Shown: positions 15,027 to 21,763, numbered from the stretch's first letter. The stretch is DNA of 64,000 bases from Escherichia coli (GCF_003334785.1 NZ_QOWV01000002.1), one strand, 5' to 3'. The notes: a model not told the origin generated them from the sequence alone. Program-made: numbers and translations.

Positions 15027-15815
15027 ATGCAAGTCGACCTGCTGGGTTCAGCGCAATCTGCGCACGCGTTACACCTTTTTCACCAACATTCCCCTCTTGT
15101 GCACTGCATGACCAATGATGTGGTGCAAACCTTTACCGCCAATACCTTGCTGGCGCTCGGTGCATCGCCAGCGATGGTTATCGAAACCGAAGAGGCCAGT
15201 CAGTTTGCGGCTATCGCCAGTGCCTTGTTGATTAACGTTGGCACACTGACGCAGCCACGCGCTCAGGCGATGCGTGCTGCCGTTGAGCAAGCAAAAAGCT
15301 CTCAAACACCCTGGACGCTTGATCCAGTAGCGGTGGGTGCGCTCGATTATCGCCGCCATTTTTGTCATGAACTTTTATCTTTTAAACCGGCAGCGATACG
15401 TGGTAATGCTTCGGAAATCATGGCATTAGCTGGCATTGCTAATGGCGGACGGGGAGTGGATACCACTGACGCCGCAGCTAACGCGATACCCGCTGCACAA
15501 ACACTGGCACGGGAAACTGGCGCAATCGTCGTGGTCACTGGCGAGATGGATTATGTTACCGATGGACATCGTATCATTGGTATTCACGGTGGTGATCCGT
15601 TAATGACCAAAGTGGTAGGAACTGGCTGTGCATTATCGGCGGTTGTCGCTGCCTGCTGTGCGTTACCAGGCGATACGCTGGAAAATGTCGCATCTGCCTG
15701 TCACTGGATGAAACAAGCCGGAGAACGCGCAGTCGCCAGAAGCGAGGGACCAGGCAGTTTTGTTCCACATTTCCTTGATGCGCTCTGGCAATTGACGCAG
15801 GAGGTGCAGGCATGA
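15027..15815 (+). CDS. thiM: hydroxyethylthiazole kinase
   Basis: 262 aa, [34 protein letters not shown]... Confidence 0.9.
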
Positions 15816-16667: not shown

Positions 16668-17495
16668 ATGAAACCAATGCAGCTAAGAATTACCAGTCGA
16701 AAAAAACTCACCTCTCTATTATGCGCTCTTGGGCTAATTTCCATCGTTGCAATTTATCCGCGTCAGACGGTGAATTTTTTCTATTCGACAGCAGTTCAGA
16801 TTACAGACTACATCCACTTCTACGGTTATCGCCCGGTTAAATCTTTCGCTATTCGCATTCCTGCCAGTTACACCATTCACGGAATAGATGTTTCGCGCTG
16901 GCAGGAGCGGATCGACTGGCAGCGGGTGGCAAAAATGCGCGACAACGGTATCCGCTTACAGTTTGCTTTTATTAAGGCGACGGAAGGCGAAAAGCTGGTG
17001 GACCCCTATTTTTCGCGTAACTGGCAACTAAGCCGCGAAAATGGCCTGCTGCGTGGGGCGTATCATTATTTCTCCCCGTCGGTATCCGCTTCAGTTCAGG
17101 CGAGATTATTTCTGCAAACGGTGGATTTCTCACAAGGCGATTTCCCTGCCGTGCTGGACGTAGAAGAACGGGGAAAATTATCGGCAAAAGAATTACGCAA
17201 GCGGGTAAGTCAGTGGCTAAAAATGGTCGAAAAAAGTACGGGGAAAAAGCCGATTATTTACTCAGGAGCCGTTTTTTATCACACCAATCTGGCGGGCTAT
17301 TTCAATGAATATCCGTGGTGGGTGGCTCACTACTATCAACGTCGTCCGGACAATGACGGAATGGCCTGGCGCTTCTGGCAGCATTCCGACCGTGGACAGG
17401 TAGATGGCATCAATGGTCCGGTGGATTTTAATGTATTTAATGGCACGGTGGAGGAGTTGCAGGCATTCGTTGATGGGATTAAAGAAACGCCTTAA
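16668..17495 (+). CDS. yegX: GH25-type muramidase-like protein
   Basis: 275-aa ORF with N-terminal hydrophobic segment; assignment from synteny and family recollection. Confidence 0.7.
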   Translation: MKPMQLRITSRKKLTSLLCALGLISIVAIYPRQTVNFFYSTAVQITDYIHFYGYRPVKSFAIRIPASYTIHGIDVSRWQERIDWQRVAKMRDNGIRLQFAFIKATEGEKLVDPYFSRNWQLSRENGLLRGAYHYFSPSVSASVQARLFLQTVDFSQGDFPAVLDVEERGKLSAKELRKRVSQWLKMVEKSTGKKPIIYSGAVFYHTNLAGYFNEYPWWVAHYYQRRPDNDGMAWRFWQHSDRGQVDGINGPVDFNVFNGTVEELQAFVDGIKETP

Positions 17496-17546
17496 ATAAG
17501 AAGCAGTGATATACTCCCACCAGACTCCCCGGCAGGAAAAAGACAA

Positions 17547-18293
17547 ATGGAACAAGCGCATACCCAGCTGATTGCCCAACTGAACGAGCGTATTTTAGCG
17601 GCGGATAACACGCCGCTTTATATTAAGTTTGCCGAAACGGTAAAAAATGCCGTGCGCAGCGGGGTGCTGGAGCATGGCAATATTTTGCCCGGTGAGCGTG
17701 ATTTAAGTCAGTTAACCGGCGTTTCGCGCATTACGGTGCGCAAGGCGATGCAGGCGCTGGAAGAAGAGGGTGTGGTGACGCGTTCGCGCGGTTACGGCAC
17801 GCAGATCAACAACATCTTCGAATACTCGTTGAAAGAAGCGCGAGGTTTTTCTCAGCAGGTGGTATTGCGCGGGAAAAAGCCCGATACGCTATGGGTTAAC
17901 AAGCGTGTCGTGAAATGTCCCGAAGAAGTCGCGCAGCAGCTGGCGGTCGAAGCAGGAAGTGATGTCTTTTTGCTTAAGCGTATTCGCTATGTCGATGAAG
18001 ATGCGGTATCGATTGAGGAATCGTGGGTTCCGGCGCATTTAATTCATGATGTTGATGCCATCGGGATTTCACTTTATGACTATTTCCGCAGCCAGCACAT
18101 TTACCCACAACGTACGCGTTCCCGCGTTAGCGCCCGGATGCCGGATGCCGAGTTTCAGTCACATATTCAGTTAGATAGCAAAATACCGGTGCTGGTGATC
18201 AAGCAAGTGGCGCTTGACCAACAGCAACGGCCTATTGAGTACAGCATTAGCCACTGTCGCAGCGATCTATACGTTTTTGTGTGCGAGGAGTAG
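17547..18293 (+). CDS. yegW: GntR-family (HutC-like) transcriptional regulator
   Basis: N-terminal winged helix (RDLSQLTGVSRITVRKAMQALEEEGVV) plus UTRA-like C-terminus. Confidence 0.8.
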   Translation: MEQAHTQLIAQLNERILAADNTPLYIKFAETVKNAVRSGVLEHGNILPGERDLSQLTGVSRITVRKAMQALEEEGVVTRSRGYGTQINNIFEYSLKEARGFSQQVVLRGKKPDTLWVNKRVVKCPEEVAQQLAVEAGSDVFLLKRIRYVDEDAVSIEESWVPAHLIHDVDAIGISLYDYFRSQHIYPQRTRSRVSARMPDAEFQSHIQLDSKIPVLVIKQVALDQQQRPIEYSISHCRSDLYVFVCEE

Positions 18294-19232
18294 TTCCTCG
18301 CGCGTTGGCGCACAATCACCGCCCCGATGCCCGACAACCCACGACGCCACTGCATTGCCCAGTAATACGGCATCCGCCAGTGGCAGACCAGAGGCCAGCC
18401 CGGCAAGTACGCCACCGGCATGACTGTCGCCCGCCCCAATGGTGTCGACAACTTGCGTTGGAAATGCCGGAATGCAGCCAGAAGCGTCGTTGCTGAAATA
18501 CCATGCGCCTTCTTTATCGAGACGAACGATCAACGGCGCGGCAAATTTCTCCTGCCATTGCTTGCCAAGTGTTGTTATCTCTGCGGATAAAGCAAAACGT
18601 TCGGCGGCAATCTCAGCCTCTTGACGATTGAGCGACACTAAAGGTCGACAGGCCATGATCCGCGCCAGTAATGCATCCGGGATATCGCCAATACGTGGGC
18701 CAAAATCGATAAACGGCGTCACGTCTTGCAGCTCTTCCAGCCATTCCACTAACAATTCGCCGCAGGGCGAGGCCAGTTGATAACCGGAAAAATAGAGCAG
18801 GCTGCCAGGCGCAACGGTTAATCGCGCCAGCCACTGGCGATTCCACTGATTTTCAACACCGCTGAATGACATAAAAGTGCGTTCGCCATCCGGCTCAACC
18901 AGCGCCAGACACCAGCCGTTATCACCTTCGGCGTTATCGATCAGGCTGATTAAGCCCTCTTTTGCCATCCGGTTGCGAATAATCTCCGCCCACACGCCCT
19001 GACCGAGCGGCAAGGCATTACCCGCTTCGATGCCGAGGCGCTTTAACGCCACGGCAATATTCAGTGCGCAGCCGCCAACGTTAACGCTCTGCTGTTTCAG
19101 TTCGATATCGCACCCACGCCAGGGGAGGGCATAAGCGTCGGCGATCACGTCAATGACCGCCGCGCCGACGACCATCACCGACTGACGCGTGGTTAATTCA
19201 GGCAGCAGCGTGTGTAATCGAGCGCCGCTCAT
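18267..19232 (-). CDS. yegV: PfkB-family sugar kinase
   Basis: 321 aa, C-terminal DTIGAGD motif typical of the ribokinase/PfkB family. Confidence 0.8.
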   Translation of the reverse strand: MSGARLHTLLPELTTRQSVMVVGAAVIDVIADAYALPWRGCDIELKQQSVNVGGCALNIAVALKRLGIEAGNALPLGQGVWAEIIRNRMAKEGLISLIDNAEGDNGWCLALVEPDGERTFMSFSGVENQWNRQWLARLTVAPGSLLYFSGYQLASPCGELLVEWLEELQDVTPFIDFGPRIGDIPDALLARIMACRPLVSLNRQEAEIAAERFALSAEITTLGKQWQEKFAAPLIVRLDKEGAWYFSNDASGCIPAFPTQVVDTIGAGDSHAGGVLAGLASGLPLADAVLLGNAVASWVVGHRGGDCAPTREELLLAHKNV

Positions 19233-20233
19233 ACCGCCTCCCGTTGTTGACGATATTTCGCCAGCGCTGTGGCATAGCGGTTGAAATCAAGCTGATTTAC
19301 CGCATCCAGTTCCGCCTTTAACGCAGGATCGATAGCGTTAACGCCATGCAACGCGCCGCAAATTGCCGTCGCCATAGCACCGATGGTGTCTGTGTCGCCG
19401 CCAAGGTTAGCGCACAGGACGGCGCAGCGATTCGGGTCGGTTTGTGCCAGTTCAACCAGCGCAATGGCGCACGGAACGGACTCAATAGTGCTGGTACCTG
19501 CGCCAACGACCTGGTAAAGCTGTTCGCTGGCGGATTCGGTGCCGTCGGCATTGCGCACAATTTTCAGCGCAATCTCCAGCCGCGCCGCCAGTGAGGCGCT
19601 GAACGTAGTGATGCGTTTTTGCTGTGCATGTCGCGCAATTGAAGGCAGGGAATCAACAATCGCTGACCAGCTTTCTCCGTCAATGGCACGAGAAATCGCC
19701 CATGCGATGACTACCGCGCCTGCAACCGCCAGATCGGATTTATGGGTCGGGCTGGACGCCAGCGCTACATCATCAATAAAGGAATCAACATCACGCGCCG
19801 GAAGCAAACAACCTAATGGCGAGACGCGCATCGCTGCGCCGTTGGTCACGCCGTTGTTTTCCAGTTCAGCAACGGGTTTACCGTCGCGAATGGCGTTAAG
19901 CGCAATCTTCGAGGTCGGACCTAGTACGTTTTTGTTAAAGGCGTCGAAACGCAGCGCCCAGTCGAGAATATTACGCCCAATCAGATCCGGATCGATCTTG
20001 CCTTCACGTTCCAGTAACGCATCCGCCAGACACAGCGCCATCGAGGTATCGTCGGTGAATTCGGCGCGGTTAAAATAACAGGCCGCGTTATTCTCCTTTG
20101 GTCCAGGAAGAAAACGGTCAATCCAGCCAAAGTGTGCTTTAACGCGGCTGCGTGGCCAAAGCTCGGAGGGCATCCCCATCGCATCCCCTAACGCCTGCCC
20201 ATAAAGAGCACCGAGAATACGTTCTGTTTTCAT
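19229..20233 (-). CDS. yegU: ADP-ribosylglycohydrolase family protein
   Basis: 334 aa, MKTERILGALYGQALGDAMGMP... typical of the ADP-ribosyl-glycohydrolase fold. Confidence 0.8.
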   Translation of the reverse strand: MKTERILGALYGQALGDAMGMPSELWPRSRVKAHFGWIDRFLPGPKENNAACYFNRAEFTDDTSMALCLADALLEREGKIDPDLIGRNILDWALRFDAFNKNVLGPTSKIALNAIRDGKPVAELENNGVTNGAAMRVSPLGCLLPARDVDSFIDDVALASSPTHKSDLAVAGAVVIAWAISRAIDGESWSAIVDSLPSIARHAQQKRITTFSASLAARLEIALKIVRNADGTESASEQLYQVVGAGTSTIESVPCAIALVELAQTDPNRCAVLCANLGGDTDTIGAMATAICGALHGVNAIDPALKAELDAVNQLDFNRYATALAKYRQQREAV

Positions 20234-21507
20234 TTAACTTCCCCTTGTGTCAACGCAATATCGCGATCATCGACCTTGATAGCCGTAATTTCGTTGTCGG
20301 ATTCGCGGAAAAAAATCATGAACAGCACGGCGATAATGGCAATCATCACCGCGCCGAAAGTCCACATCCCGGACCAGTTGAAAGTCAGTCCGTTTACCGG
20401 TTCCTGATAAGCGAACATCTTTTCCATCATCACACCGCCAAGACGATAGCCGAGCAAACTGCCGAAGCCCTGGCAGCAGAGCGTGATCAGCCCCTGCGCA
20501 GCGGTACGCATATGCACGGGGGCTTTTTTATCGACATAGATGTAAGCGGTAACGTAGTAAAAATCGTAACTTACGCCGTGAAGCAAAATACCGAGGAACA
20601 GTAACGCGTAGGTGAAATATTCATCCGCACTACCGTAAATAAAGAAGCCATAGCGGATCGCAGCGGTGACCAGACCAAGCAATAATACCTTTTTGATACC
20701 AAAGCGTTTAGTGAAAAACGGCAATGCCAGCATAAAGAAGATTTCAGAGAACTGGCCGAGCGTCATCCAGCCGGTGGCGTTTTTCATGCCAACTTCGGTC
20801 AGATAACCGTTGGCAAAGATGTAATAGAACGCTAGTGGCATCGCAAACAGGAATGAACAGAAGAAAAAGACGAGGAAGTTTTTATCGCGCAGCAGGATCA
20901 GCGCATCCAGGCCGAGCATGACTTTAATATCCATTTTGCCGGTGCTTTTTGGTGGCGTGTCGGGCAGGAAAAACGCAAACACACCGAGCAGAGCAGAACT
21001 TCCGGCGGTAATCAGCAGCGGGATGTTAGTCGGTGAGATATCGGCATACCCCAGTATTTGCGGCAAGAAACCACATGCCAGACCGGAGGCAATCCAGCCG
21101 ATAGTGCCCATCACACGAATGCGCGGGAAATCACGCTCAACATCCGGCACGTTGGCAAAAGCGATGCTGTTAGTCAGCGCAATGGTCGGCATATAGGTTA
21201 GCGAGTAGGCCAGCAGTAACGGGAAGAACCCGGCAAAAGTGGTCTGTTGCGCAGCGAAATACATCAGCAGCGCGCCTGCGAACATCAATACCGCCAGCAC
21301 TTTCTGCGCCGAGAAAAAGCGGTCAGTGATGGAGCCAACCAGAATTGGCGACAGGATCGCCGCAATGGCGGTACAGGCATACGACCAGCCAATTTCTCCG
21401 GCACTAAAACCGCTTTTACTTAACCACAACCACAATGGCACAAACCACGCGCCCCAGATAAACCATTCAACAAACATCATGAACGACAGCTTTGCTGTTG
21501 TTTTCAT
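20230..21507 (-). CDS. yegT: MFS nucleoside transporter family protein
   Basis: 425 aa polytopic membrane protein; first gene of the yegT-U-V operon. Confidence 0.8.
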   Translation of the reverse strand: MKTTAKLSFMMFVEWFIWGAWFVPLWLWLSKSGFSAGEIGWSYACTAIAAILSPILVGSITDRFFSAQKVLAVLMFAGALLMYFAAQQTTFAGFFPLLLAYSLTYMPTIALTNSIAFANVPDVERDFPRIRVMGTIGWIASGLACGFLPQILGYADISPTNIPLLITAGSSALLGVFAFFLPDTPPKSTGKMDIKVMLGLDALILLRDKNFLVFFFCSFLFAMPLAFYYIFANGYLTEVGMKNATGWMTLGQFSEIFFMLALPFFTKRFGIKKVLLLGLVTAAIRYGFFIYGSADEYFTYALLFLGILLHGVSYDFYYVTAYIYVDKKAPVHMRTAAQGLITLCCQGFGSLLGYRLGGVMMEKMFAYQEPVNGLTFNWSGMWTFGAVMIAIIAVLFMIFFRESDNEITAIKVDDRDIALTQGEVK

Positions 21508-21763
21508 CTTTTAATTCCTTCATGACAGGTAATGTAAGGTACGCGATGACAATACCACTTAATAATACCTTTTAAATACCTTTGCGGTGAAAACTTGACC
21601 GCGCTAACATTTTTTCTGATGAATCGAGCCAACAGAAAACGCTGAAAAAACATCCAAAAGATGGAAAAACTCGCCCGTAACGACCAGGATTATGATTGCC
21701 CGCTAAAGGCGGGCCAGGAAAATCCATAGCCGATATCCAATCGGAATTTACGGGAGCATAGTA

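Follow-up and report, generated by a model that had tools for sequence, protein, structure and literature searches.

The stretch of DNA analysed here (the window) comprises 64,000 nucleotides of Escherichia coli (GCF_003334785.1 NZ_QOWV01000002.1). On this part of the E. coli chromosome, thiM, thiD, yegX, and yegW follow one another on the plus strand, and yegV, yegU, and yegT come next on the minus strand. yegW, now called ggaR, occupies positions 17547-18293 of the plus strand (248 aa; stop codon TAG at 18291-18293; RefSeq b2101) and encodes a GntR/HutC-family repressor of yegTUV. yegV (18267-19232, minus strand, 321 aa; RefSeq b2100) encodes a PfkB-family sugar kinase and is the last gene of yegTUV; its stop codon, TAG, reads as CTA at 18267-18269 on the plus strand. 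Upstream of it in the operon lie yegU (19229-20233, minus strand) and yegT (20230-21507, minus strand), both present in the ORF list and in RefSeq. Three co-directional pairs in the window share 4 bp of sequence ATGA, namely thiM/thiD (15812-15815), yegU/yegV (19229-19232), and yegT/yegU (20230-20233), an overlap of the kind typical of translationally coupled operon genes.

Pfam assigned a GntR domain (PF00392) to residues 29-87 of YegW and a UTRA domain (PF07702) to residues 108-242, with E-values of 1e-35 and 7e-16. This combination of an N-terminal GntR winged helix-turn-helix and a C-terminal UTRA domain places the protein in the GntR/HutC subfamily. YegW could be aligned with the solved YvoA/NagR structure up to residue 245, i.e. 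through the last strand, DLYVFV. In YegV, the PfkB domain covers residues 17-309 (E-value 1e-56), and homology to PfkB proteins stops at about residue 313. The first-pass annotation of this DNA had suggested that the regulator might control the kinase operon, and this was correct, as GgaR has been characterised as an ADP-glucose-responsive repressor whose single target is yegTUV, with about 20-30 molecules in each cell (PMC10819704). In the same study, yegTUV was transcribed as a single mRNA and was derepressed about 30-fold in the absence of GgaR and about 3-fold by high glucose in the wild type.

The segment shared by the two genes (18267-18293, both strands) is 27 bp long and provides each of them with eight sense codons and a stop codon. 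It holds yegW codons 241-248 and the stop (LYVFVCEE*; CTA TAC GTT TTT GTG TGC GAG GAG TAG) and, on the other strand, yegV codons 314-321 and the stop (LLLAHKNV*; CTA CTC CTC GCA CAC AAA AAC GTA TAG). The register is antiparallel, with codon position 1 opposite position 3 and position 2 opposite position 2. Two triplets are used doubly, on both strands: at 18267-18269, the yegV stop TAG is the yegW Leu241 codon CTA, and at 18291-18293, the yegW stop TAG is the yegV Leu314 codon CTA. We computed that loss of the yegV stop would add 32 residues to the protein, and loss of the yegW stop 24 (one from the mutated stop codon itself and 23 beyond it). With its 27 bp, the overlap exceeds the common 4-bp overlaps in which stop codons are shared.

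A tail-to-tail overlap of 27 bp had been noted in the first-pass annotation, and the ORF list, the sequence, and the MG1655 RefSeq annotation all agree with it; MG1655 has the same arrangement, with b2100 at 2181096..2182061 and b2101 at 2182035..2182781. The possibility that one gene truly ends earlier, making the overlap an artefact of annotation or sequencing, had also been raised. We regard this as virtually excluded: nothing was found in its favour, and in both genes the conserved frame meets no stop codon before the one annotated. RefSeq and thousands of genomes have the identical arrangement (of 5426 complete E. coli genomes, 5420 contain the region at 80% coverage or more), and 65 of the 69 species-level loci keep both frames open throughout the shared segment. 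Genome engineers have, moreover, edited the two TAG stops separately, at sites 24 bp apart (PMC3458525). yegW and yegV are both genuine protein-coding genes. Being real genes on opposite strands that share 3' nucleotides, with both frames open in relatives, they form a convergent overlapping pair. In one strain, E. coli SHP24 (NZ_CP104788.1), the region matched with 100% identity in two pieces over 3073 bp, with an ISApl1 (IS30-like) transposase annotated under the match, which points to an IS insertion at this locus in that strain.

To follow the junction beyond E. coli, we scanned for YegV using one genome per species. The scan yielded 70 loci, 69 of which (K-12 included) contained both genes, and orthologues occur in 70 or more species. 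The overlap was exactly 27 bp in 65 of these 69 Enterobacterales loci, with carriers in Escherichia, Citrobacter, Enterobacter, Lelliottia, Leclercia, Mangrovibacter, and Trabulsiella and out to Pectobacterium and Leminorella. Of the remaining four loci, one has a duplication and one an insertion, and a gene is frameshifted in each of the other two. A 1-bp deletion within the shared segment frameshifts yegW in Yokenella regensburgei, and yegV is frameshifted in Pectobacterium sp. PL152; each case may be a pseudogene or an assembly error. Two records, titled Chryseobacterium sp. 18061 and Cichorium endivia, carry enterobacterial yegV/yegW sequence under non-enterobacterial names and are probably contaminated or mislabelled assemblies.

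Within the overlap, the YegW tail was essentially invariant and the YegV tail variable (A/T, H/N/D/Y, K/E, and N/D/H at the changing residues). Every change in the overlap was a synonymous third-position change in yegW, and the YegV tail therefore tracks the conserved last beta-strand of YegW. Normalised third-position entropy in yegW was 0.32 in the overlap, compared with 0.67 for codons 1-205. Just ahead of the overlap, codons 206-240 showed the lowest synonymous variability of any 35-codon window in the gene. These alignments show that the C-terminal strand of YegW, LYVFVCEE, is under strong purifying selection and that the last eight residues of YegV follow whatever synonymous changes yegW admits. 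Dual coding constraint explains the exact conservation of the 27 bp, and nothing more is needed to account for it.

This constraint is also seen in the two dual-use triplets. Among 63 loci, Leu241 of YegW was encoded by CTA in 50 and by TTA in 13, and CTG, CTC, CTT, and TTG were never used (0/63); the other Leu codons of yegW vary freely across loci. The yegW stop was TAG in 21 and TAA in 42 of the 63 loci, opposite CTA or TTA in yegV. A metagenomic relative has taken another route that preserves the same geometry, with residue 241 being Ser (TCA) opposite a TGA stop and the overlap still being 27 bp. The comparison shows that the two stops are locked, each TAG or TAA lying opposite a CTA or TTA Leu codon of the partner gene, and changes that would destroy a stop were never seen.

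Two Citrobacter lineages have escaped from the overlap. In Citrobacter amalonaticus S646 (L008:4900-5120), an imperfect tandem duplication of the junction, about 107 bp long, has given each gene its own tail; the genes are now 56 bp apart and YegV is extended (ending in FAHGDIQVAATRTQ*). This is the sole locus in which Leu241 is encoded by CTG, the codon having been freed by the duplication. The shift to CTG after the genes separated shows that NTA is otherwise retained at this codon for its second role as the yegV stop. In Citrobacter sedlakii (L020:4950-5040), an insertion of about 95 bp that contains two hairpins has taken the place of the YegV tail, leaving a gap of 69 bp; it resembles a terminator cassette of recent acquisition. 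Both genes survived the loss of the overlap in these lineages, which makes the coding overlap itself dispensable.

We then placed more distant YegW orthologues in their contigs. The convergent arrangement of yegW and yegVUT was kept wherever yegV was present (L072-L075, L078, and L079), and no yegV was called adjoining yegW in Pragia or in Budviciaceae BWR-B9. Four non-overlapping outgroups were sampled, with spacers of +242 bp (L078), +67 bp (Yersinia intermedia, L072:4745-4817), +32 bp (Providencia, L073:4745-4782), and +29 bp (L079); in Pantoea dispersa, the junction is a 14-bp overlap (-14 bp). Three of the four spacers (Yersinia, Providencia, and L079) contain a discrete hairpin, and that of Providencia is a textbook bidirectional terminator of the form A6-hairpin-T6; the whole 242-bp spacer of L078 was folded as one, with no terminator singled out. 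Residue 241 is Met in all four, so that no yegV stop is possible there. The length of YegV after its conserved 'AP' is 14 residues in overlapping and non-overlapping lineages alike.

These comparisons suggest that the 27-bp overlap is derived, having arisen through spacer loss, after which dual coding froze it. An ancestor of the Enterobacteriaceae-type cassette would have lost a short, terminator-bearing spacer, after which the end of yegV would have fallen within the antisense of the last eight codons of yegW.

The loss of the spacer raises the question of where the two transcripts end. The first-pass annotation had held that the overlap leaves no room for terminators. This is accurate insofar as there is zero intergenic space between the stops, but a conserved, codon-selected hairpin with a U-rich tail lies within yegW, 36-94 nt past the yegV stop. 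The hairpin, which we call hairpin T (18185-18231, minus strand), is a 47-nt stem-loop with 19 base pairs and a folding energy of -26.8 kcal/mol, located within yegW codons 213-229. Directly after it comes the tail AUUUUGCUAUCU (18173-18184, minus strand), antisense of yegW codons 209-213, so that the whole element spans codons 209-229. Hairpin T thus has the stable, G+C-rich stem of a terminator, beginning 36 nt after the yegV stop. The tail is imperfect (AUUUUGCUA); in E. coli it has four consecutive U and five U in its first nine nucleotides, and the latter count was 4-6 in 60 of 65 sequences. The fold of the 181-nt context of hairpin T had a z-score of -2.67. Across the 64-kb window, searched on both strands (128 kb), hairpin T ranked first in stability among the end-closed 47-nt hairpins that precede a U-rich tail. 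A simple promoter/terminator scan flagged no terminator near the junction and gave no excess over shuffled sequences, and an Rfam search over 17000-19600 returned no match at E<=1.

A hairpin within yegW could also be something other than a terminator, such as a chance palindrome, a structure of the yegW mRNA, or a protein-binding site in the DNA. As it lies in coding sequence, its conservation is expected regardless, the tail has only four consecutive U, and the reverse strand folds as well (-21.4 kcal/mol in E. coli). We therefore asked how stable the segment would be if only the protein were fixed, by redrawing the codons from the gene's own usage 2000 times while keeping the YegW sequence. 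None of the 2000 synonymous recodings was as stable as hairpin T in E. coli (mean -10.5, SD 3.4), which argues against these non-terminator readings. The fraction of recodings reaching the native stability was at most 0.011 in 9 of 11 overlap-lineage sequences (the window and 10 loci); the hairpin was weak in two overlap lineages, Leminorella (L060) and Trabulsiella (L036). For Yersinia, the corresponding fraction was 0.17, and for Providencia it reached 0.64. The homologous segment has a weak fold in all four non-overlapping outgroups (-6 to -14 kcal/mol) and carries no U-tail there. Hairpin T is thus absent where a spacer terminator exists, which also speaks against the non-terminator readings, as does its standing as the most stable site of its type in the 128 kb scanned.

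The pattern of substitutions indicates on which molecule the hairpin acts. RNAalifold, applied to 65 sequences, found the hairpin T helix and, apart from a stem of three pairs at the edge of the alignment, nothing else. In hairpin T, 95.9% of the alignment cells were paired, compared with 29-54% when the partners were slid; the covariation consists largely of one-sided changes (G-C to G-U), true compensatory ones being few, and the related sequences are not independent. Non-Watson-Crick cells were G.U in 207 cases and A.C in 10, and the yegV-sense strand was more stable than its reverse in 59 of the 65 sequences. The excess of G.U together with the greater stability of the yegV-sense strand points to selection on the yegV-sense RNA, not on the yegW mRNA or the DNA. 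A binding site in the DNA would have some appeal, as GGTATT-like motifs are found both in the yegT promoter and at the tail of hairpin T; however, the only ChIP-chip signals of GgaR are at the yegT promoter and inside yegT, and we set aside hairpin T as a GgaR operator for this reason. Altogether, we consider it unlikely that the hairpin is not a terminator.

We infer from these observations that hairpin T either terminates the yegTUV mRNA or is what remains as its 3'-end stem after trimming. The yegTUV transcript would then end at, or be trimmed to, a codon-selected hairpin and U-rich tail within yegW. The supplements of published Term-seq (PMC7815308) and SMRT-Cappable-seq (PMC6131387) data contain no entry for yegV, yegW, yegT, or yegX; the absence of yegV and yegW from these 3'-end sets would be expected for a repressed operon and weakly expressed genes.

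Two further sites in the operon were noted. Upstream of yegT, at about 21530-21600 on the minus strand, where GgaR binding was mapped, there are repeated GGTATT motifs (AAGGTATTTAAAAGGTATTATTAAGTGGTATTGTC), which may be GgaR operator half-sites; GGTATTTT of this upstream region recurs as the tail of the hairpin within yegW. Within the 3' part of yegT, a perfect stem of 14 bp (GGCGCGGUGAUGAU/AUUAUCGCCGUGCU) precedes UUCAUGAUUUUUUU (20318-20364, minus strand). This terminator-like site lies about 90-130 nt ahead of the yegT stop and could give rise to a yegT-only transcript or attenuate yegTUV.

For the yegW transcript, no comparable element was detected. We sought a conserved structure or U-run for yegW termination within yegV and found none (alifold energy -6.3 kcal/mol). 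The continuation of the yegW transcript (18294-18420, plus strand) is untranslated and antisense to the 3' part of yegV. Over about 120 nt, this RNA contains 40-42% C and 22-24% G, with a GC skew of -0.17 to -0.31; it is C-rich, G-poor, unstructured, and untranslated, and so has the features of a Rho-type terminator as far as composition alone can tell. Termination of yegW is thus most likely Rho-dependent, and Rho would terminate the weakly expressed yegW transcript in the untranslated, C-rich region that lies antisense to yegV, with 18294-18420 as the candidate zone.

A 7-bp palindrome, GCGAGGA/TCCTCGC (18283-18301, both strands), is centred on the yegW stop. It was tried as a bidirectional terminator and rejected: neither strand has a following U-tract, the T-run preceding the palindrome and the A-run coming after it in the transcribed senses, each on the wrong side, and the palindrome is only partly conserved (86% paired across relatives) and was not recovered by RNAalifold. 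E. coli, which has no spacer, thus lacks a bidirectional terminator between the stops, and the Providencia locus has one.

As the coding sequences overlap, the yegW and yegV mRNAs must overlap as well. With the predicted 3' ends, the yegTUV and yegW mRNAs would be complementary over roughly 120 nt or more, and antisense effects would be possible. The yegV-yegW pair is among 165 convergent excludons that were detected in at least 50% of 58 MG1655 RNA-seq datasets (PMC12288877). Coupling of yegW and yegTUV by antisense RNA or transcriptional interference is a plausible hypothesis.

The coupling might even be a functional antisense switch, in which derepressed yegTUV lowers yegW through polymerase collision or cleavage of the duplex by RNase III. 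The result would be positive feedback on induction, and the overlap would have been kept for that reason. In its favour, besides the transcript overlap reported across the RNA-seq datasets (PMC12288877), the regulator and its target are convergent in relatives with yegV, at very short or negative distance (with outgroup spacers of up to +242 bp). The approximately 30-fold derepression of yegTUV, set against 20-30 GgaR molecules per cell, offers the asymmetry that interference needs, and an embedded terminator would let the antisense RNA cover no more than the final ~120 nt of yegW. However, GgaR protein stayed constant over 24 h in glucose media while yegTUV rose 3-fold (PMC10819704). The overlap was lost in the two Citrobacter lineages, spacer hairpins in Yersinia, Providencia, and L079 would limit transcript overlap there, and dual coding constraint fully accounts for the exact 27 bp. 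We therefore find such a switch doubtful as an explanation of the overlap.

A more elaborate form of this idea is that the spacer terminator was replaced by one written into the synonymous sites of ggaR, so that derepressed yegTUV always enters ggaR for ~120 nt and duplexes or collisions then lower GgaR, giving a commitment switch. We hold this to be rather improbable. If true, a positive-feedback switch would be built into the control of a single-target repressor of which each cell contains about 10 dimers.

The arrangement can be compared with several known systems. Convergent overlapping pairs are a recognised minority class, with about 75 in E. coli K-12 (Huvet & Stumpf 2014, PMC4161906). 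Like them, yegW/yegV consists of two bona fide opposite-strand genes with common 3' ends, is of a kind that originates by stop-codon movement or spacer loss, and has an overlap that is more conserved than its flanks owing to dual coding; unlike the typical pair, the partners here are a repressor and the operon under its control. The pair also resembles excludons, being convergent with overlapping transcripts and itself on the published ExcludonFinder list for E. coli (PMC12288877). However, the mutually exclusive expression that defines excludons, through interference or RNase III, is only a candidate for yegV-yegW, and its transcripts probably share a short stretch (about 120 nt or more), with no long antisense UTR running across the neighbouring gene.

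Bidirectional intrinsic terminators represent the ancestral-type solution at the same junction, as in the A6-hairpin-T6 of Providencia; the spacer hairpins of Yersinia and L079 lack the A/T-tract arrangement. E. coli differs in having no spacer, and its only terminator-like element is one-directional and lies in the yegW coding sequence. Finally, GgaR resembles the GntR/HutC repressors encoded beside a single target operon (NagR/YvoA, with LacI-type logic) in having a GntR helix-turn-helix and a UTRA domain, a single target, an adjacent gene, and a low copy number (PMC10819704). The usual layouts of such repressors are divergent or co-directional, whereas ggaR is convergent with its target and overlaps the target's 3' end.

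Taken together, we read the locus as an ordinary, anciently fixed convergent overlap of ggaR and the last gene of yegTUV, maintained by dual coding, with the terminators moved into coding sequence; we put the probability of this reading at roughly 70%. The overlap itself, the relation between regulator and target, and the overlap of the transcripts were already known (RefSeq, PMC10819704, PMC12288877). What is new is modest: the deep conservation, the lock between stop and Leu codons, its resolution by duplication, and the codon-selected embedded hairpin.

The arrangement has practical consequences, since deleting or tagging the 3' end of yegW also alters yegV and the probable terminator of the operon. 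The closeness of the stops has been felt before, when MAGE oligonucleotides designed for one TAG stop overwrote the other (PMC3458525). The Keio design removes a gene from codon 2 to the seventh-from-last codon and leaves its last 21 nt (PMC2824493). A ggaR deletion of this design, JW2088, should accordingly lack the last codon and stop of yegV (18267-18272) and the hairpin with its tail (18173-18231). Going by the general Keio design, then, JW2088 should be without both the yegV end and the candidate yegTUV terminator.

This matters because JW2088 was used to define the function of GgaR, and an altered yegV 3' end could colour the phenotypes ascribed to loss of GgaR. The 3.3-kb yegTUV band on Northern blots was likewise obtained in the Keio ggaR deletion (PMC10819704); as this strain should lack hairpin T, we dropped the band as support for termination there. 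Both the ggaR-mutant phenotypes and the 3.3-kb band may partly reflect the altered 3' end of yegV. More broadly, the locus offers a natural example of how an overlap can be locked by stop and Leu codons, how it can be resolved by tandem duplication, and how a terminator would move into the neighbouring gene.
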